From assembly GCF_044324785.1 (NCBI RefSeq), contig NZ_CP172127.1: a DNA stretch of 64,000 nucleotides. The stretch is one strand, 5' to 3'. Numbering within the stretch: position 1 is the stretch's first letter; each line of letters starts with the position of its first letter. Positions 7,706-17,874 of this stretch are shown one piece after another. Both the position numbers and the translations under genes were made by a program. The DNA comes from Escherichia coli. GTDB taxonomy: Bacteria > Pseudomonadota > Gammaproteobacteria > Enterobacterales > Enterobacteriaceae. The notes under the pieces were generated by a model. It saw nothing but the letters and a program-made list of their open reading frames with translations, had not been told where the DNA came from and searched no databases.

Positions 7706-8530
7706 ATGCAAAACATTACCCAGTCCTGGTTTGTCCAGGGAATGATCAAAGCCACCACCGACGCCTGGCTGAAAGGCTGGGACGAGCGCAATGGTGGTAA
7801 CCTGACGCTGCGCCTGGATGACGCCGATATCGCGCCTTATCACGGCAACTTTCATGCACAACCGCGCTATATTCCGCTCAGCCAGCCCATGCCTTTACTG
7901 GCAAATACACCGTTTATTGTCACCGGCTCCGGCAAATTCTTCCGCAACGTCCAGCTTGATCCTGCGGCTAACTTAGGCGTCGTAAAAGTCGACAGCGACG
8001 GCGCGGGCTACCACATTCTCTGGGGGCTAACTCACGAAGCCGTTCCAACCTCTGAACTTCCGGCGCACTTCCTCTCTCATTGCGAACGCATTAAAGCCAC
8101 CAACGGTAAAGATCGGGTGATCATGCACTGCCATGCCACCAACCTGATCGCCCTTACCTACGTACTGGAAAACGACACCGCGGTCTTCACTCGCCAACTG
8201 TGGGAAGGCAGCACCGAATGTCTGGTAGTGTTCCCGGATGGCGTCGGCATTTTGCCGTGGATGGTGCCCGGCACCGACGAAATCGGCCAGGCGACCGCAC
8301 AGGAAATGCAAAAACATTCGCTGGTGTTGTGGCCCTTCCACGGCGTCTTCGGCAGCGGTCCGACACTGGATGAAACATTCGGTTTAATCGACACCGCAGA
8401 AAAATCAGCACAAGTATTAGTGAAGGTTTATTCGATGGGCGGCATGAAACAGACCATCAGTCGTGAAGAGCTGATAGCGCTCGGCCAGCGTTTCGGCGTT
8501 ACACCACTCGCCAGTGCGCTGGCGCTGTAA
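7706..8530 (+). CDS. rhaD: Rhamnulose-1-phosphate aldolase
   Basis: 274-aa [40 protein letters not shown]..., class II aldolase. Confidence 0.95.
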
Positions 8531-8539
8531 GGAGCAAAC

Positions 8540-8854
8540 ATGATCCGCAAAGCCTTTGTCATGCAGGTTAACCCCGACGCCCACGAAGAGTATCAGCGTC
8601 GGCATAATCCAATCTGGCCGGAACTGGAAGCAGTGTTGAAATCTCACGGTGCGCATAACTACGCCATTTACCTCGACAAAGCGCGTAATCTGCTGTTTGC
8701 CACGGTAGAGATTGAATCTGAAGAACGGTGGAATGCGGTAGCCAGTACTGATGTTTGCCAACGTTGGTGGAAATATATGACCGACGTTATGCCAGCTAAC
8801 CCGGATAACAGCCCAGTCAGTAGCGAGCTGCAAGAAGTGTTTTACCTGCCTTAA
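8540..8854 (+). CDS. rhaM: L-rhamnose mutarotase
   Basis: 104-aa [49 protein letters not shown]..., immediately downstream of rhaD. Confidence 0.92.
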
Positions 8855-8894: not shown

Positions 8895-10289
8895 TCAGAA
8901 GAAGTATTTAAAGCGAACGCGTGCGCCGTAACGGTCATCAGTATCATCACCGTGTTTTTTATCACCGTCGCTATCCAGAATGGAGTAATACGTCCCGAGG
9001 TAAATATTAAAGTTCTCCATATCCATCACATTAGCGAACTGATAAGACGCATGAATGGTGTGAATGGTGTACGTCCCTTCATCATCAATCCAGCAGTCGT
9101 TATCACAAACTACACCGCTGAATTCATCAATCTTATTGTGCGCGTAGATATAACCCAGCTCGAAACGTTTCCACAGCGCGTTAATCCCGGCAGTGAAATC
9201 TTTCTCATTATTAGCATCTAAATAGGCGGTATTAAGATTAACCACGACACCATTTTCCGGATCCGTTTTTAGGCCATTCCAGGTCATGCTCATACCATAG
9301 CCGGTACGATCGGACTGATCGACAAAATTACCCTTGCTATCGGTATAACCATAAGCATTATTTACCACGTTCGCTTCCATCGCTGCGGAAACGGTAAATT
9401 CTTCCGTCGGCGACCAGGCAATTACCGGACGCAGATAAGCAACATTTTTCTGCTGCTCCATATCGCGTCCATGATAATTACCGTCATTATATAAAGATGT
9501 TCCGTCTTCAAGTAACGTGTTTAATTCAAAATACCAGTTATCGAGTTGTTTGCTGACGAGGAAATTACCGCCAGCGTTAGAGCGCCCGCGGCCCTCTTTC
9601 ATCATATAGATATAACCGCTGCCATCGTCATAAAGATCGTTCGCAGTATTACCGGAATGTTCAACAAAGGTATCCTGATTCAGCGGGAACATATCGTAGG
9701 CTTCAAAACGGCCTACTTTGACCTTCCAGTCGTTTTCTTTGCCAAAGAAGAATACCGCATCATCGATATTTACTGAACCGTGCATGTCCCCCAGCGGTTG
9801 TGCGGAGAACCCGGCGAAATAACCATTATCCAGTTTTCGCATACCATCAAAACCTAACAGAATACGACCATTGAGATTCCACTGTTCATTAGTGGGATCG
9901 CTATTCACATCAGCGTTGGTCATTGCCAGCAGGCCATGATTACTTTCTGCATCCATATTAAATTCTACGTCGCCGTAGATTTTTAAATCGCCATAACCTG
10001 AGAGCAAAAGATTAGGTGAGGTGGAATTTTTCTTTGCAGATTCCGCCGTTGCCTGTCCATTTACCGGCGTATTGCCCTGGGCAGCCTTAATTTCGCGGAT
10101 CTCAGCGGCTTGTTGTGTCTGCAGCTGTTTAACCTGGCTCTCTGCTTTTGCTGCCCGCATTTCTGCCGCTTCCAGGCGTTCTTCCAGCAATGCCATGCGT
10201 TGTTCCAGCGTTAAATGCTGTGTTTTTGCCATTCCGGTACTACATGCCAATAATAAACCGATGGCTAAAGATAATGTCGATTTTTTCAT
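8895..10289 (-). CDS. Outer-membrane carbohydrate-type porin with N-terminal coiled-coil extension (ScrY/LamB-like)
   Basis: 464-aa ORF; signal peptide MKKSTLSLAIGLLLACSTGMA; about 60 residues of heptad-like helix (LEQRMALLEERLEAAEMRAAKAESQVKQLQ); aromatic/Gly-rich beta-strand-like body; C-terminal RFKYFF typical of OMPs; AT-rich upstream region 10290..10640. Confidence 0.7.
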   Translation of the reverse strand: MKKSTLSLAIGLLLACSTGMAKTQHLTLEQRMALLEERLEAAEMRAAKAESQVKQLQTQQAAEIREIKAAQGNTPVNGQATAESAKKNSTSPNLLLSGYGDLKIYGDVEFNMDAESNHGLLAMTNADVNSDPTNEQWNLNGRILLGFDGMRKLDNGYFAGFSAQPLGDMHGSVNIDDAVFFFGKENDWKVKVGRFEAYDMFPLNQDTFVEHSGNTANDLYDDGSGYIYMMKEGRGRSNAGGNFLVSKQLDNWYFELNTLLEDGTSLYNDGNYHGRDMEQQKNVAYLRPVIAWSPTEEFTVSAAMEANVVNNAYGYTDSKGNFVDQSDRTGYGMSMTWNGLKTDPENGVVVNLNTAYLDANNEKDFTAGINALWKRFELGYIYAHNKIDEFSGVVCDNDCWIDDEGTYTIHTIHASYQFANVMDMENFNIYLGTYYSILDSDGDKKHGDDTDDRYGARVRFKYFF

Positions 10290-10765
10290 TATTTACGTTC
10301 CCTGAAATAAAGGAGACCCTACGCTTTCCAAAAGGAATACATATATAGGGAAATATAAGGTGTGCACTTTCGAATTTTTAATCCAACTTCAGCAGACCGA
10401 TGGATAGTATCCCGCCATATAATATGAGTAAATCCGCTGATTTCCTGGAACGTGAGGAATATAACAATAGTGCCGTTTTTAACTAAATATCGTAAAAAAT
10501 ATTAGATATGATTCACGCTGACTCATAAGCCACAAATATAAATAACCTTGCTGCAAAACATGTGCGGCAGTTAAACATTCACAACATCATTAAATAATGA
10601 TTTTTTATTCACTGCATTTATTTTGTCCATCAATATGTGCCTTACACCGCAAAATTTATCCTTCACTCTGCCTTATATTGTCACGACTTCACGACATATC
10701 CGCGCTCATCACAAAACCGCCCCGCCGTTACAATTAACTATAATATTTTTTCATGGAGTCCAATA

Positions 10766-11276
10766 ATGGCAGCACTTACTGCAAGCTGTATTGACCTGAA
10801 TATTCAGGGCAATGGCACTTATTCCGTTCTGAAGCAGTTGGCGACAATGGCGTTACAAAACGGTTTTATCACCGACTCACACCAGTTCCTGCAAACTCTG
10901 CTGCTGCGCGAAAAAATGCACTCCACCGGTTTTGGTTCCGGCATCGCCGTGCCGCACGGTAAAAGCGCCTGCGTTAAACAACCGTTCGTGTTATTCGCCC
11001 GCAAAGCGCAGGCCATTGACTGGCAGGCCAGCGATGGCGAAATTGCTGGAGCGAACAGGAACGACGTTTTCGTGGATTTTTTATTACCCTCGCCCAACCG
11101 GTTGAGGTGAATAACGAAGTCGTTAACCATGTGCTGATCGCCTGTGCCGCCGCCGATGCGCGTCATGAGCTAAAAATATTTAGCTATCTGGCAAGCGTAT
11201 TGTGTCAGCATCCGGCAGAGGTTATTGCCGGGTTAACAGAATATGAGGCATTTATGGAGTTACTTCACAGGGGGTG
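10766..11276 (+). pseudogene. frvA: PTS EIIA (fructose-like) component FrvA, apparently frame-disrupted
   Basis: N-terminal EIIA-2 region MAALTASCIDLNIQGNG...GSGIAVPHGKSAC...WQASDGE runs to a stop at 11110; the expected C-terminal EIIA segment VNNEVVNHVLIACAAADARHELKIFSYLASVL... is in a different frame (stop 11276). No frvB/frvX/frvR follow. Confidence 0.6.
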
Positions 11277-11280
11277 AACG

Positions 11281-11305
11281 GTGTCGGATGCGCCGCATCC
11301 GACAC
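11281..11305. other. Perfect 25-bp hairpin (REP-like) at frvA / yiiG junction
   Basis: gtgtcggatgcgccgcatccgacac is a perfect inverted repeat; no flanking T-run on the plus strand. Confidence 0.5.
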
Positions 11306-11332
11306 TGCATTTATCACCACAATCAAAAACGT

Positions 11333-12388
11333 TTAACGCAAGCTATTATAGTCATCGACCATTTCGTTGTACTCGCGTAACGCTCGCGGAAATGAGTCGT
11401 CGACCATCCAGCTTGTGTTTGCATCCTGAAGATGCTCTTTATCCCAGTCAGAGTACGGAACTTTATCTCTGACGCGGCGAACATATTTTTTAGCCTCGAG
11501 TTGATACTGGTCTGCCGAATTAATGAACGAGAAATTCATACCGCCTTTATCCGCTTCTTTGGCCTGCGCCACCAGCGTTTCCAGTTCAGAGACTTTCTTC
11601 ATTGCCGCATCAACATCAAACTTCTCTTGCGAAATCAGGTTATTAATTTGTTTCGCTGAAATCATGACTGCCAGAGAGTAGTAGTGGAATGTTTTCCCTT
11701 CTCTTTGTTCAATATTTTTCAGTTCCGCAAGCTGGCGCTTATCGTTAATTTCCTGAATCGCCGCATGATAAGATTCTGCTACAGGTTCAAAGGCTTCAAG
11801 ATTTTTTAAGAATGTCTGGTGCAGCGTTTTCCCTTTCGCAAACGCATCGTCTTTATAATTTTCCTGGGTGTAATATTTATCCATTTCGTTAATGGTATTA
11901 CCCAACGCCACGGCAGCATCAATATAACTCACCGCCACGCCATCAATAGGTTGCAGCGCAGGCGTTAACGCCACGACTCTTTTTATTCCTTTTTGACACT
12001 CAGAGAGATTGGATTCACTAATGCCATAGATGCCATAAACAAGGCTCTCTTTACCCGTTGGCCCCTGTTTAAAATCTTTCAGCCAGTCAGCGTAACGCGC
12101 CAGACTGTTCTGTACAGGGATCTGTAACTTGTTGTAGCACTTGATATAGACATCCATTTTTTCGTCGAAGACCGCTTGTTCATCGACCACCGGTTGCGCA
12201 GGCGTTTCAGGTTTAACTTCTGCTTTTGCAACGGGAGCTTCAGTAGGTTTCGCTTCAGGAGCTGGTGCGGCAGGTTGACTATTGGCAGGCGGGGGCGTTT
12301 CTGTTTCGGCTTTTTTATCATCACAACCCGTGAGACCGAGGGCCATGATGGCGACTATAATAGCGGAAGATAATAAATTCCTTTTCAT
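11333..12388 (-). CDS. yiiG: Lipoprotein YiiG (DUF3829 family)
   Basis: 351-aa ORF with lipoprotein signal MKRNLLSSAIIVAIMALGLTGC and Pro/Ala/Glu-rich linker. Confidence 0.85.
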   Translation of the reverse strand: MKRNLLSSAIIVAIMALGLTGCDDKKAETETPPPANSQPAAPAPEAKPTEAPVAKAEVKPETPAQPVVDEQAVFDEKMDVYIKCYNKLQIPVQNSLARYADWLKDFKQGPTGKESLVYGIYGISESNLSECQKGIKRVVALTPALQPIDGVAVSYIDAAVALGNTINEMDKYYTQENYKDDAFAKGKTLHQTFLKNLEAFEPVAESYHAAIQEINDKRQLAELKNIEQREGKTFHYYSLAVMISAKQINNLISQEKFDVDAAMKKVSELETLVAQAKEADKGGMNFSFINSADQYQLEAKKYVRRVRDKVPYSDWDKEHLQDANTSWMVDDSFPRALREYNEMVDDYNSLR

Positions 12389-12582: not shown

Positions 12583-14889
12583 CTACATTCCATAACGTTC
12601 AGAAATAGCAGCATGCTTCTCTTCATTCGCCCCGGCTTCTTTGGCAAGACGCCACCAGCACAACGGATGTTCCCAGTCAGCGGTCAATTCGTGCAAGGTC
12701 TTATCGATATCACCTTTAGAAACTGAACGCGGCGCGCTGATAACAAAGTAGAACGCGGGCAGCGGCTGTGCATCTTCTCCCTGCTGGCTGTCCGTTAACG
12801 TATAGTCCTCGTTACTGTTGCTCCAGTAGTACCAGTTTCGTTCACGGAGCGCCTCACGGAAGACATTAAACTGTTCTTCCCCAGGCATGACACCTTCACA
12901 GAACCAGGACTCGCCGTACTCAGTCGGGATAATGGTTTGCAGGCAGGCATAAAGTGGCGTGAAATTCTTCCGTTCTTCCTCATCCTCTGGTTGGGTGTTC
13001 AACATTTCTGCATCGAATACCACAACTTCATCAACATGTTGCGGATAATCGGTCCGGTAAGTTGGCTCAATGATCCTTGCTGTTACCGGCCCAATACGTT
13101 GAGCATAGTAATAGCGGTATTCATAATTTTCCCGGAAGCGAATGTTTAGCAGCCCCCATTTTTCGTCGATAAAACCTTCACCTTCCGTAAGTTCGATTTC
13201 CAGTTCAGCAGCAATAGCACGAACCAAATCCCATTGTTGCAGGATGCTGGCGGTCGCCATGATATCCCACTGGAGATTTCGAATATCTTCTTCACGGCTA
13301 ATCATCAGTTGCTGCAATTGTTGTAAATAATCCAGCTGTCGATCCCAGGCTTCCTGTTTTTGTGCTGCCCAGGAGCACATGCGATAAACGCCAACCCATT
13401 CACGCCCTTTTTCGTTTTGCAGCAACTGTTGCCCAATCGACTCCAGTTCACTCCAGTCTTCCTGTTGGTTGATCACTCGCGCACGGAACCACAAGGCCAT
13501 ATGTAGCAGCCCCGCCTGTTCATACTGCTTCGCCAGGTGCTCAATGGTTTGCAGATCGTCACGGTGGAGCAATAAATCCAACAGATCGAAGCAGAGATTG
13601 TTATCTTCCTGGAGGTGGCTTTCGACGTAGCGTTGCAGAAGTTCAATCGACTCATCAATCGCATTACAGGCATTTAACGCATTGACCAGTTTGCCCAGCA
13701 ATTCCGCATCATCTGGCGCGTTCAGGTAAGCGCGGCGGAATGTTTCGACGTCTTTTTCTGGATCTGGCTGCGTTTCTTCGTCGCTATTTTCAGGTACTTC
13801 TACAACCGGACGAGCAAGCAACTCCGCCTCTTTGGCGGCGATTTTTTCACTCAGTTCGAGAAACTCGCGATCAACCCCCAGTAACGCGCGTAATTTTGGC
13901 ATGTGTCGCTGGGCCAGTTTCATCGCTATTTTGGCAACCCAGACGGATTCACGCTCCAGCGCCAGGGTGATTTGCAGTTTTGCCAGATTAACCACTTTGC
14001 GATGCGCCCCGGCCTGTGAACGTTGCTCCAGCATTTTCTGGATGATGCGCGCCAGTTGCCAGTTGTTTCTTTGTGGATGACGGGGAAGTAACACAGTAAT
14101 GATTTTCAGCCATGACCCCCATGAATGGGGAGTCAGATCTGACCAACGCGGTAATTCCTCCCAGACTTCTTCGTCCTGCCCGCATAACGCCATGATGTAC
14201 AGTTTTTTGAGGTGATTACTAATGCGGTCGCGGCCCCAGTAATCATTGGCTTCTGTCAGCTCATCAATCAGTATGCGTGCTTCATCATAACGCTGAAGTT
14301 CAATCAGAATATCGGCACGAGTATAAAGTAATGCATCAATATCATCTTCCCCGGCTGCTTTAACTGCGTCGATTTGTCGATCCAGATAAGCCAGTGCCTC
14401 CTCTATTCTTTTGGAATCTATCAGTGCACTGGCATATTCAGTGGACAAACACTGAAAACAGCTCCAGGTCGGATCAATCCGCGCGATGGTTTCTTCACAT
14501 ACCGCCATGCGTTCATTCGCCCAGCCAGGTGCATCAATATTTTCGTAGCAGGCGGATAAATCCTGGGTAACGCAGATAGATTGTGGGCAATCTTTTGTCT
14601 CTTCCCGGTGCGCTTTTTCAAACAGCGCCACCACGTCTGGCAGTACTTTTTCGCCTTCTTCGCGGTTAGTGAGACGATGGCGCATTTCCCAATGACCAAT
14701 AAAAATCTCCAGCCACGGATTTTTTGCCACCTGGGTAAGTGCTTTTACTTCAGGTAACAGCGAATCGCACTTTTCCATTTGCAGGTGCATAACGCCTTCC
14801 GAATAATCATCGATAAGTTGCGGAATATACTCCTGCCCGGCATCGCGTAACTCCTTAGTATATTTGTGATACCACTCCCATATATCCAT
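12583..14889 (-). CDS. Large acidic helical-repeat protein of unknown function, operon partner of the GHKL ATPase
   Basis: 768-aa ORF, start 1 bp downstream of the preceding gene's stop (translational coupling); Trp/Glu/Leu-rich, predicted alpha-helical (TPR/HEAT-like by eye); no catalytic motif recognised. Confidence 0.6.
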   Translation of the reverse strand: MDIWEWYHKYTKELRDAGQEYIPQLIDDYSEGVMHLQMEKCDSLLPEVKALTQVAKNPWLEIFIGHWEMRHRLTNREEGEKVLPDVVALFEKAHREETKDCPQSICVTQDLSACYENIDAPGWANERMAVCEETIARIDPTWSCFQCLSTEYASALIDSKRIEEALAYLDRQIDAVKAAGEDDIDALLYTRADILIELQRYDEARILIDELTEANDYWGRDRISNHLKKLYIMALCGQDEEVWEELPRWSDLTPHSWGSWLKIITVLLPRHPQRNNWQLARIIQKMLEQRSQAGAHRKVVNLAKLQITLALERESVWVAKIAMKLAQRHMPKLRALLGVDREFLELSEKIAAKEAELLARPVVEVPENSDEETQPDPEKDVETFRRAYLNAPDDAELLGKLVNALNACNAIDESIELLQRYVESHLQEDNNLCFDLLDLLLHRDDLQTIEHLAKQYEQAGLLHMALWFRARVINQQEDWSELESIGQQLLQNEKGREWVGVYRMCSWAAQKQEAWDRQLDYLQQLQQLMISREEDIRNLQWDIMATASILQQWDLVRAIAAELEIELTEGEGFIDEKWGLLNIRFRENYEYRYYYAQRIGPVTARIIEPTYRTDYPQHVDEVVVFDAEMLNTQPEDEEERKNFTPLYACLQTIIPTEYGESWFCEGVMPGEEQFNVFREALRERNWYYWSNSNEDYTLTDSQQGEDAQPLPAFYFVISAPRSVSKGDIDKTLHELTADWEHPLCWWRLAKEAGANEEKHAAISERYGM

Positions 14890-14890
14890 T

Positions 14891-16726
14891 TTATTTTCCT
14901 TGATTAATTAAGACAGGAATAACCTGAGTAAAATCTTCCAGTGCCTGATGTAAATCCCACTGCTGTTCTTTATTACCGCTGGAGCACAGAATCACTTTCA
15001 GCGATTTTAATAACCGTAATGCTGCCGCTGGCTGTTGATGGTGTTGTAATGCCGTCACCAGTTGCATGACACAGGGGTTATTAAGGTTGATATAGAGACT
15101 TGAAGTTTTAGATTTTTGGATTTGCGAGGTAAATTGCCGCGCCAGCATTAATGCAGCGGTACTGATGCGTTTATCTGCGTCATCCTGTTCGAGAATTTGT
15201 TTTAATTCTGCTTCGCGGTCTGGCGTGACCACGAGCGGTAAAACCGCTGGTTCGAAGCGGGAGATAATTAATTGCTCGCCATCACAGAGATGCTCTTCCA
15301 GATATGCAACCTGCTCTTCGGGTAATTCTGCCAGGCTGAACAACTGCTCATTACCCGTTTGCGTACCGACTTCGATAATCCGGCAGTGATATAACAGCGC
15401 CCAACGACGTAAAAATGGCACCACCGCATAACGATCGCCACGGGCTACGGGCCGTTGCAGAATATGAAACAACATCTCTTCAAAACCGCCGTCGCGGCTT
15501 AACAGAATATGAATACTGTTATTAACGCGTAAATCCTTCGCCAGCAGCGCACCTTTTGACGTTGGCACCTGCAGGCGGTCTTTGAGTAAATCAAACAGAC
15601 GATCATCACACAAGGCCGCACCCAGCAACGCTTCGTTGTGGCGCATTAATACACGCCGCCAGATTTCTGGCTGGTTTTGTGCGAGATCGGACAAACCTGA
15701 AATCAGCGCCTCTTTTAGCGCCTCCTGTACCGCAACCCAGGTTTCATCCCGCTGGAGATCTTCCCGGCTCGCCGTCGGCGTCAGTTTCGATGACTCAATC
15801 ACGCCGCCAATAAATCCGGCCCAGGGCGGTAACAACTCACGCGCTTCATCATCCAGTAACATACCGCGCAAAAACAACGACAGGTTGCGGTTATCGCTGG
15901 TGCCGTAGGTTGCGCCATCCTGAATCCATAAAATCCCGACCGCATCGCTCATCCCCGCAGGTACTACCGGAATGGTGCAAATCGGTTCGAAGGAGGATTC
16001 AAACTGGGCGGCAAAGGCGAGATTTTTACGCTGCACCAGCGCGCGGTGCATGGTTACGCCTTCGGGGGCAACTTCACGCCACGGTGGTTGAAGTTTATTT
16101 ACCGGCTCGCCGGCATCGCCGACATAGACCGGTTCGTGCAGCAATATGCAGTAGCGGGAAAGAACGCGGTTCAGCAAATTGTTACTCGCCAGATGGCTAT
16201 ACTCTTCTTTGAGCGTCAGAATCACCTGCGTTCCCGTTTCCGAGGACTCATACGGCGTAACGGTATATTTTTGCCCGTCAGTAGAGTGGTATTTCCAGCG
16301 CTGATCCGGCGTTTGCCAGGATGTGGTCAACACCGTAACCTCTTTTGCCAGCACAAAGGCCGACAAAAAACCGAGGCCGAACATACCAATTAAACCGGTG
16401 TTGTCATCCTGCTGGCGCAACATTCGGGTATAACCCACGCCCACTGTCGCCAGGAAGCCGTGAATTTCACTTTCTGTCAGTCCCGCACCGGTATCGGTAA
16501 TGGTGATGATGGACTTCGCCACGTCTGCCACCACACGAATCGCGTTATCCTTTGGCGCATCGGGCTGCTCAATCCTGCGGCGAACGATCGCATCATGGCC
16601 GTTCTGCACCAGCTCGCGCACGGCAACCACGGGAGTGGAGTAAAGATGCTTACTAAGCACCTCAATTAAACCGTTTAAATTAACTTCTGTAGAATATGAA
16701 CTGCCAGGTAACTGTAATGTACTCAT
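14891..16726 (-). CDS. Hsp90/MORC-type GHKL ATPase paralog (HtpG-like, not housekeeping htpG)
   Basis: 611-aa ORF with Bergerat-fold motifs in order: ELVQNGHDA (motif I, cf. Hsp90 ELISNASDA), DTGAGLT (motif II, cf. DNGIGMT), GMFGLGFLSAF (G-loop, cf. GQFGVGFYSAF); AT-rich promoter region 16727..17037. Confidence 0.7.
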   Translation of the reverse strand: MSTLQLPGSSYSTEVNLNGLIEVLSKHLYSTPVVAVRELVQNGHDAIVRRRIEQPDAPKDNAIRVVADVAKSIITITDTGAGLTESEIHGFLATVGVGYTRMLRQQDDNTGLIGMFGLGFLSAFVLAKEVTVLTTSWQTPDQRWKYHSTDGQKYTVTPYESSETGTQVILTLKEEYSHLASNNLLNRVLSRYCILLHEPVYVGDAGEPVNKLQPPWREVAPEGVTMHRALVQRKNLAFAAQFESSFEPICTIPVVPAGMSDAVGILWIQDGATYGTSDNRNLSLFLRGMLLDDEARELLPPWAGFIGGVIESSKLTPTASREDLQRDETWVAVQEALKEALISGLSDLAQNQPEIWRRVLMRHNEALLGAALCDDRLFDLLKDRLQVPTSKGALLAKDLRVNNSIHILLSRDGGFEEMLFHILQRPVARGDRYAVVPFLRRWALLYHCRIIEVGTQTGNEQLFSLAELPEEQVAYLEEHLCDGEQLIISRFEPAVLPLVVTPDREAELKQILEQDDADKRISTAALMLARQFTSQIQKSKTSSLYINLNNPCVMQLVTALQHHQQPAAALRLLKSLKVILCSSGNKEQQWDLHQALEDFTQVIPVLINQGK

Positions 16727-17037: not shown

Positions 17038-17874
17038 TTAATTATGAATCAAACGCTGCGGATGGGTATAAACCGTTGCCCGACCCAGTTTACAAAAGCC
17101 CACCAGCGTCAAATTACAGCGTTCAGCCACTTCTACAGCAAGCGTGGTCGCGGCAGACACCGCAAACAAAATCTCTACGCCACACATCGCCGACTTTTGC
17201 ACCATTTCATAACTGGCACGGCTGGAAACCAGCACCGCACCTTGCTGCCAGCTTTCCCCTTCTTGTGACCGGCGGCCTAACAGTTTGTCCAGCGCCACAT
17301 GGCGACCCACGTCTTCATGCCCGCCGACCAGTTCGCCAGATGGCAACATCCATGCAGCGGCGTGAGTACAACCGGTCAGTTGCCCCACTGGCTGGAAATC
17401 ATTGAGATGACGTAATGCATCATCCAGTTTGTTGAGATCAAACGTCTGGGTGAACGGCAGCGGCTGCACCGGTTTTCCGATATCGTTAAGCTGTTCCACG
17501 CCGCACACGCCGCAGCCTGTACGCCCGGCCAGCGCCCGGCGACGTTCCTTCAACCCCATAAAGCGGCGGCTGGAAAGCTCAATTTGAACTTCAAGACCAT
17601 TACAGGAAGGAGCGACATCCATGCCGAAGATATCGCGCGGACTTTCTATTATCCCCTCGGAAAGCGAAAAACCGAGCGCAAAGTACTCAAGGTCTTTGGG
17701 CGACGCCATCATCACCACATGCGAAATGCCGTTGTAGACCAGCGCAACGGGAACTTCTTCCGCGACCTCATCTAACCGTGGGTGTTGTAAATCATCACGC
17801 CGCCATAACTCAATTTGACGAACACCTGTGATATTTGTCACATTTTCGATTTCTTTTTGCTGTGTTTTTTTCAC
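17038..17874 (-). CDS. fdhD: Formate dehydrogenase accessory sulfurtransferase
   Basis: 278-aa [62 protein letters not shown]...; divergent from fdoG. Confidence 0.92.

Follow-up and report, generated by a model that had tools for sequence, protein, structure and literature searches.

The closest described system to the locus analyzed here is the frvABXR operon of Escherichia coli K-12 (b3900-b3897), which encodes the fructose-like PTS EIIA protein FrvA, the EIIBC protein FrvB, the M42-family peptidase homologue FrvX, and the regulator FrvR. In K-12 the four genes lie in the order frvA-frvB-frvX-frvR between rhaM and yiiG, an arrangement that the initial annotation of our DNA had indicated and that we confirm. 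Almost no experimental literature on the operon was found, and the literature on frv deletions yielded passing mentions only; the frv cluster is reported to be absent from ST131 (PMC9205054). Across 5,426 complete E. coli genomes, a set that does not include the genome from which our DNA comes, frvB-frvX is detectable in 4,197 (77%) and absent from 23%, and the 3' end of frvR is detectable in 4,196. NC101 (B2) and HH45 carry different deletions that run from upstream of frvA into yiiG. Truncation of yiiG is seen in several strains: the whole-frv deletions of NC101 (L023) and HH45 (L024) end within the gene, and in NR3736 frv is intact, yet a separate truncation (L002:13239-13880) takes the yiiG N-terminus.

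The window, by which we mean the whole 64-kb stretch of E. coli DNA that was analyzed, holds an frv remnant at the position that the operon occupies in K-12, between the rha genes and yiiG. The gene order is rhaB-rhaA-rhaD, rhaM, a porin gene, the frv remnant, yiiG, two extra genes, and fdhD, and the features are as follows.

7706-8530: rhaD, the end of the rhaB-rhaA-rhaD block
8540-8854: rhaM
8895-10289, minus strand: carbohydrate porin gene, 464 aa, Pfam Porin_8
10290-10765, plus strand: porin-frvA intergenic region (frv promoter side), retained, with 97.1% full-length identity to NR3736, in which frv is intact
10766-11041, plus strand: frvA 5' remnant, 276 bp, codons 1-92 of 148, with the GIAVPHG motif and His64; aligns without gaps to frvA of NR3736 (98.9%), SMS-3-5, and K-12 and ends exactly at 11041
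10766-11110, plus strand: residual open reading frame of 114 aa, FrvA residues 1-92 followed by a 22-aa tail from out-of-frame frvR DNA; ATG at 10766, TGA at 11108-11110
11041-11042: probable deletion junction without inserted bases, at which frvA codon 92 is followed by frvR from base two of codon 505
11042-11277, plus strand: frvR 3' remnant of 236 bp, which begins with two bases of codon 505 and continues through codons 506-582 to the stop at 11275-11277; at the nucleotide level it is 97.9% identical to frvR of NR3736
11278-11332, no strand: native spacer of 55 bp separating the convergent genes frvR and yiiG; it agrees with NR3736 and SMS-3-5 at 53 of 55 positions
11281-11305, no strand: perfect 25-bp palindrome, REP-like hairpin, GTGTCGGATGCG C CGCATCCGACAC
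11333-12388, minus strand: yiiG, intact, 351 aa, DUF3829 lipoprotein family, 94.7-99.4% identity to annotated yiiG
12583-16726, minus strand: two extra genes 3' of yiiG
12583-14889, minus strand: first extra gene, 768-aa protein without a family match, faint TPR match only
14891-16726, minus strand: second extra gene, 611-aa HSP90/HtpG-family ATPase (NCBIfam PRK14083, 285 bits, under the 455-bit cut-off)
17038-17874: fdhD

The nearest complete E. coli genomes over the 10-kb stretch around the remnant are SMS-3-5-like (about 97.2% identity), and all of them carry an intact frvABXR here; for the rest of the window the best identity to a complete E. coli genome is 99.0%. Several features of this neighborhood vary among strains. 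The porin gene between rhaM and frvA is found in many E. coli (NR3736, SMS-3-5, S51, O157:H7, and NC101) and is missing from K-12, as it is from the strains described below whose frvA::frvR fusion is in frame; in Ec-RL2-1X it is split by an IS4-like element. Pfam DUF3829 was matched in the yiiG gene of L006, a locus identical to that of the window. The extra gene pair between yiiG and fdhD is present in SMS-3-5 and missing from K-12, S51, and 06-00048; a PADLOC search of the pair returned only weak matches, of the 611-aa protein to the ATPase domains of TmtA and of a type II REase, and together the two genes may form a small island of accessory or defence-like character. Allelic divergence at frvA, frvR, and yiiG among E. 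coli is unusually high, with synonymous divergence up to 0.3-0.5, and at the 3' end of frvR nucleotide identity falls to 86-87%, with mosaic patterns (window 10766-12388, loci L001-L022). As judged from these alleles, the rha-frv-yiiG-fdhD interval suggests either ancient allele classes or frequent recombination.

Alignment to intact frvABXR loci places the endpoints of the missing segment at window positions 11041 and 11042, and we consider it very probable that 10766-11277 is a scar left when the core of the operon was deleted from the chromosome. A BLAST comparison of window 10300-11500 with the intact loci gives two ungapped blocks. The first, 10300-11041, corresponds to the region upstream of frvA and frvA nucleotides 1-276 (97.7% identity to NR3736), and the second, 11042-11500, runs from frvR nucleotide 1514 to the end of that gene and on into yiiG (97.8%). 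The 4,205 bp absent between them have the same size in all four intact references (K-12, NR3736, S51, and SMS-3-5) and comprise frvA codons 93-148, both frvB and frvX in their entirety, and the first 504 codons of frvR together with one further base. Neither blastn nor tblastn finds frvB, frvX, the deleted segment, or any further part of frvR anywhere in the 64-kb window, so that the EIIBC gene frvB and frvX, both of which an frvABXR operon would hold, are lacking here. The absence of frvB, frvX, and frvR from the locus, as first described, is accordingly right for the first two genes and wrong for frvR, of which the last 236 bp are kept. The retained codons are orthologous to those of the intact operons (92 codons of frvA and 77 of frvR, with nucleotide identity of 95% to K-12 and 98% to NR3736 and SMS-3-5). 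Unlike K-12, however, the window is without the 3' third of frvA, frvB, frvX, and 87% of frvR, and what remains cannot give rise to a transporter, to a peptidase, or to the regulator's DNA-binding portion. B2-type whole-operon deletions such as that of NC101 resemble this case in that a dispensable PTS operon has been lost at the same locus, but in those strains yiiG is truncated and nothing of frvA or frvR is left.

Each of the two remnants can be assigned to its parent gene. In tblastn, window 10766-11041 matches FrvA residues 1-92 with 97.8% identity, and the frvA remnant matches NCBIfam PRK09913 (NF007389) over positions 1-93 of 148 with 171.9 bits, above the cut-off of 151. Window 11044-11274 encodes FrvR residues 506-582, of which 75 of 77 are identical to SMS-3-5 FrvR (97%); the match to NCBIfam PRK09863 (NF007366) covers only positions 510-586 of 586 and scores 126 bits, under the cut-off of 426. 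FrvR carries an HTH_11 domain at residues 5-60, which is deleted here, and a C-terminal Pfam PTS_EIIA_2 domain at residues 455-560 (model positions 11-121), and the frvR remnant encodes the distal half of this EIIA-like domain. At the junction, GAA/ATT (the slash marks the breakpoint here and below), frvA is cut after a full codon and frvR resumes at codon position two, and the fusion is therefore out of frame. The frvA frame from the ATG at 10766 stops, as first reported, at 11110; it reads MAALTASC...DWQASDGE and then the 22-aa foreign tail IAGANRNDVFVDFLLPSPNRLR. The second frame, with codons from 11044 and an open reading frame listed at 11107-11277, reads ...VNNEVVNHVLIACAAADARHELKIFSYLASVL...HRG, or in full (N)CWSEQERRFRGFFITLAQPVEVNNEVVNHVLIACAAADARHELKIFSYLASVLCQHPAEVIAGLTEYEAFMELLHRG, and ends at the TGA at 11275-11277. 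The out-of-frame fusion thus fully accounts for the appearance of two halves in two frames.

The spacer on the far side of the frvR remnant is as first described, with 55 bp (11278-11332) that include a perfect 25-bp hairpin before the yiiG stop. Its arms, 11281-11292 and 11294-11305, are 12 nt each and 100% complementary, with a loop of 1 nt. We considered and rejected the spacer and its hairpin as products of the deletion: the palindrome is identical in sequence in K-12 (whose version of the spacer has 49 bp), NR3736, and SMS-3-5, all with an intact frvR, and it is therefore native and unrelated to the deletion. A scan of 10290-11400 returned no terminator-like site; the bases 3' of the palindrome stem on the plus strand are TGCATTTATCACC, and since these contain no T-run the palindrome is not called an intrinsic (Rho-independent) terminator. 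Among E. coli the spacer occurs in a short form of 49-55 bp with the single 25-bp palindrome and in a long form of 101 bp (L001:6980-7080, L004:7237-7337), which holds a full REP-like element, GGTCGGATAAGGCGTTTACGCC[G/A]CATCCGACC, and is the form of S51 and 06-00048. To judge by its sequence, the short palindrome resembles a pair of fused REP half-sites.

The frvA-frvR junction is real, an inherited allele common to many independent assemblies. One of the 5,426 complete E. coli genomes, that of strain 06-00048 (NZ_CP015229.1), has the same junction nucleotide for nucleotide, and there PGAP annotates abutting pseudogenes, a partial frvA and a partial frvR (GJ11_RS26100, GJ11_RS26095). This genome shares with the window the junction GATGGCGAA/ATTGCTGGAGCG, the 276-bp and 236-bp remnants, and the porin and yiiG neighbors. 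It differs from the window by 14 and 30 substitutions in the frvA and frvR remnants, respectively, by an extra internal stop in frvA, by a REP-containing spacer that is 46 bp longer, and by the lack of the 768-aa/611-aa gene pair after yiiG. The 114-aa product is encoded in exactly this form on at least 103 contigs in NCBI, ENA, and Logan, and GCA_013183545.1 is 100% identical to the window over the compared segments of the 6.3-kb locus. Four further 114-aa variants (P0122, P0123, P0126, and P0001) all have the junction GGCGAAATTGCTGGAGCG, and the same junction is found in L006-L017. In total it is represented by at least five protein variants on more than 130 contigs, including Logan SRA assemblies and ENA metagenome scaffolds; GTDB species-representative genomes and JGI metagenome contigs gave zero matches to it.

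A second type of fusion, which looks independent, occurs at the same place. E. coli 2013C-4282, WL297, and loci L025-L029 carry an in-frame frvA::frvR fusion of 182 aa (P0028; gene at L025:4001-4549), whose junction lies inside the first of two sequence blocks described below, ...GACGGCGAAG/GCGAAAACCTG..., and whose product is FrvA(1-92)-FrvR(493-582). This type of fusion is also recorded for L025-L030, with GCA_039787015.1 among its carriers. Its breakpoint in frvA is that of the window, after GGCGAA (codon 92), and frvB and frvX have likewise been lost. Its frvR breakpoint, in contrast, is 37 nt further upstream, inside the quasi-repeat GGCGAAG, as a result of which the reading frame is kept; the allele is also very divergent (identity of about 84-87%), and no porin gene lies upstream. 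GTDB species-representative genomes gave zero matches to the in-frame junction, and a contiguous frvA-frvR fusion of any kind is found in only three complete genomes.

Illegitimate or short-homology recombination would have produced the deletion. In frvA, a quasi-repeat GCCAGCGATGGCGAAG (H1) is followed by ACGTCA and then by ATTGCTGGA (H2); in frvR, GCCCGCGAAGGCGAAG (H1') is followed by 36 nt and then by the same ATTGCTGGA (H2'). The junction of the window consists of H1 minus its final G, directly abutting H2, and at the exact breakpoint GAA/ATT there is no microhomology and no shared base. In frvR the 9-bp repeat ATTGCTGGA is found at the breakpoint, but in frvA it is found 7 nt past it, and the quasi-repeat (14 of 16 positions) lies at the frvA breakpoint but 37 nt ahead of the frvR breakpoint; matches of either kind are common by chance. 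Because 13 exact 9-mers of frvA recur in the downstream 4.3 kb, and because the best local similarity between them is no better than that of shuffled sequences, H1 and H2 do not form a statistically special hotspot. The junction could have arisen in two steps, either through an H1-mediated in-frame fusion followed by a secondary 37-bp deletion or through an H2-mediated fusion followed by a secondary 7-bp deletion, or it could have arisen in one step from a misaligned intermediate paired at both the H1 and H2 blocks. Among complete genomes and the protein hits inspected, we find neither an H2-slippage intermediate that keeps GACGTCA nor an intermediate in the window's own allele background. The 172-aa protein P0011 was examined as a candidate intermediate and rejected, as it is not a fusion. 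We also rejected homologous recombination at equivalent positions of the paralogous EIIA domains that FrvA and FrvR share: the breakpoints fall at Pfam model positions of about 91 and about 63, the two pieces share no protein similarity, and their DNA similarity is no better than that of shuffles. Nor are the mismatches near the junction (CAG, GAT) repair scars, since the intact SMS-3-5 locus has the same bases.

As to whether all carriers of this junction descend from one event, two histories have to be weighed. The junction-bearing alleles form at least three haplotype groups, namely the window with L006, L007-L017, and 06-00048. Between the window and 06-00048 there are differences at -18, -16, and +20 from the junction and at 30 of the 236 bases of the frvR remnant, and the flanks of the two match different intact classes (NR3736/SMS-3-5-like versus S51/K-12-like). 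These differences are mostly synonymous, with a dN/dS of 0.08-0.13 as between intact alleles, which indicates inheritance from functional alleles and not decay after the deletion. Divergence of the haplotypes by pseudogene decay can be rejected on the same grounds, as dN/dS values of 0.06-0.4 are those seen between intact alleles. At FrvA codon 87 (window 11025-11029; L007-L017), 16-18 nt from the breakpoint, K (AAA), Q (CAG), and H (CAC) are found among intact as well as deleted alleles, which makes three states at a single codon.

On the available allele comparisons we favor a single old deletion that would have spread and had its flanks overwritten by recombination. The other history, which refines the deletion explanation and is not an alternative to it, is a recurrent hotspot at which misalignment of frvA (H1-6 nt-H2) with frvR (H1'-36 nt-H2') repeatedly yields the same junction; we regard it as possible but distinctly the less probable course of events. 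An identical junction on the window family and on 06-00048 despite different flanking alleles, differences between them that are mostly synonymous and inherited from functional alleles, the lack of the two extra genes downstream of yiiG in 06-00048, and the same frvA breakpoint in the second fusion type all speak for a hotspot. However, an identical junction without microhomology is unlikely to arise twice, the region is highly mosaic in E. coli, and the similarity in H1 and H2 does not exceed what chance would give. Furthermore, 06-00048 is the same as the deletion alleles L013 and L015 from -45 to +19, and the combination C, A, A, T at -28, -18, -16, and -7 shared by 06-00048, L013, and L015 occurs in none of nine intact alleles; this combination near the junction fits identity by descent with later replacement of the flanks. 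The divergent haplotypes with the same junction do mean that a single origin is not an easy explanation. A wider proposal, in which frvA codon 92 and frvR codons 493-505 would be a recurrent deletion hotspot and the 182-aa EIIA chimera might in addition be kept as a functional protein in some strains, seems to us doubtful.

Returning to the allele of the window itself, we propose that its frv locus is probably non-functional, with neither a transporter nor a regulator. Several elements are still there, including the upstream or promoter region, the RBS (a GGAG kept 7 nt 5' of the frvA ATG), and an open 114-aa frame with the motif histidine; a simple scan of the plus strand of the porin-frvA intergenic region gave no strong sigma-70 consensus. 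The translation contains the motif GIAVPHG, with His64, which fits the pattern G-x-A-V-P-H-G, and from general knowledge of EIIA(Fru/Mtl/Ntr) proteins we take this residue to be the phosphorylatable active-site histidine. Gene callers label the 114-aa product PTS_EIIA_2. In intact FrvA, however, residues 4-144 cover positions 3-143 of 144 in the PTS_EIIA_2 model (PF00359), whereas the product encoded here holds FrvA residues 1-92 only, and model positions from about 92 to 144 are missing, so that the EIIA_2 domain is incomplete. Because the last third of the EIIA fold, the phosphate acceptor FrvB (EIIBC), and FrvR are all missing, the 114-aa product is best read as a dead remnant. In 06-00048 an internal stop has already been gained in the frvA remnant.

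It has to be asked, nevertheless, whether the remnant works as a new small gene whose EIIA-like product, truncated or chimeric, selection has preserved, perhaps to act as a phosphoryl sink or a regulator. The promoter region, the RBS, and the 114-aa frame with GIAVPHG are conserved in more than 100 assemblies, and the in-frame 182-aa frvA::frvR fusion of other strains is still open at about 15% nucleotide divergence. Against these observations stand the out-of-frame fusion of the window, the missing EIIA_2 positions, the lack of an EIIBC partner in the window, the internal stop in the 06-00048 remnant, and the labeling of both fusion types as pseudogenes by PGAP. The low dN/dS is seen equally between intact alleles and is thus no sign of selection on the remnant. 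We therefore regard a selected small gene as very unlikely.

Still less credible is the model that the initial annotation implied, in which frvA would be complete but split by a frame-shifting indel near 11040-11110, with frvB, frvX, and frvR lost separately. It is true that both pieces look like EIIA, that 92 and 77 aa together come to about the size of an EIIA protein, and that Pfam PTS_EIIA_2 matches both FrvA and the FrvR C-terminus. The second piece, however, shares 97% of its residues with FrvR 506-582, and BLASTP detects no similarity between it and FrvA, so that what was taken for the C-terminal EIIA segment of FrvA is a piece of FrvR; it looks EIIA-like because FrvR has a terminal PTS_EIIA_2 domain of its own. 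The split presupposes a FrvA C-terminus reading ...VNNEVVNHVLIACAAADARHELKIF..., but intact FrvA goes on ...DGEDVNCWICLGVPQSGEED..., and this is missing in the window. No indel lies inside frvA: the nucleotide alignment is ungapped to 11041 and picks up in frvR 4,205 bp later. What could not be read in one frame are thus a piece of frvA and a piece of frvR, not the halves of one gene, and of the suggested loss of the frv PTS operon by decay or deletion it is a single net deletion of 4,205 bp that stands. A false frvA-frvR junction, created in assembly or sequencing by the collapse or misjoining of a contig, was a fair concern because the window's own genome lies outside the complete-genome set, but it can be dismissed as practically impossible given the identical junction in the independent complete genome 06-00048, in GCA_013183545.1, in Logan SRA assemblies, and in ENA metagenome scaffolds, and given that no repeat is long enough for a collapse (the longest exact word shared by frvA and the downstream operon is 10 nt).

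The loss of frv seen here is an ordinary deletion of an accessory operon, one already annotated in RefSeq, and it has little significance beyond correct annotation. The proper annotation is two partial pseudogenes, frvA 5' and frvR 3', not a frameshifted frvA. As a point of method, an EIIA-like C-terminal peptide beside a truncated EIIA gene may belong to the EIIA domain of a regulator. The junction GGCGAAATTGCTGGAGCG is a possible marker with which to track carrier lineages. For the organism, the deletion would leave this genome unable to use the Frv fructose-like PTS, and it adds one more architecture to the several routes by which E. coli lineages have lost the frv operon.
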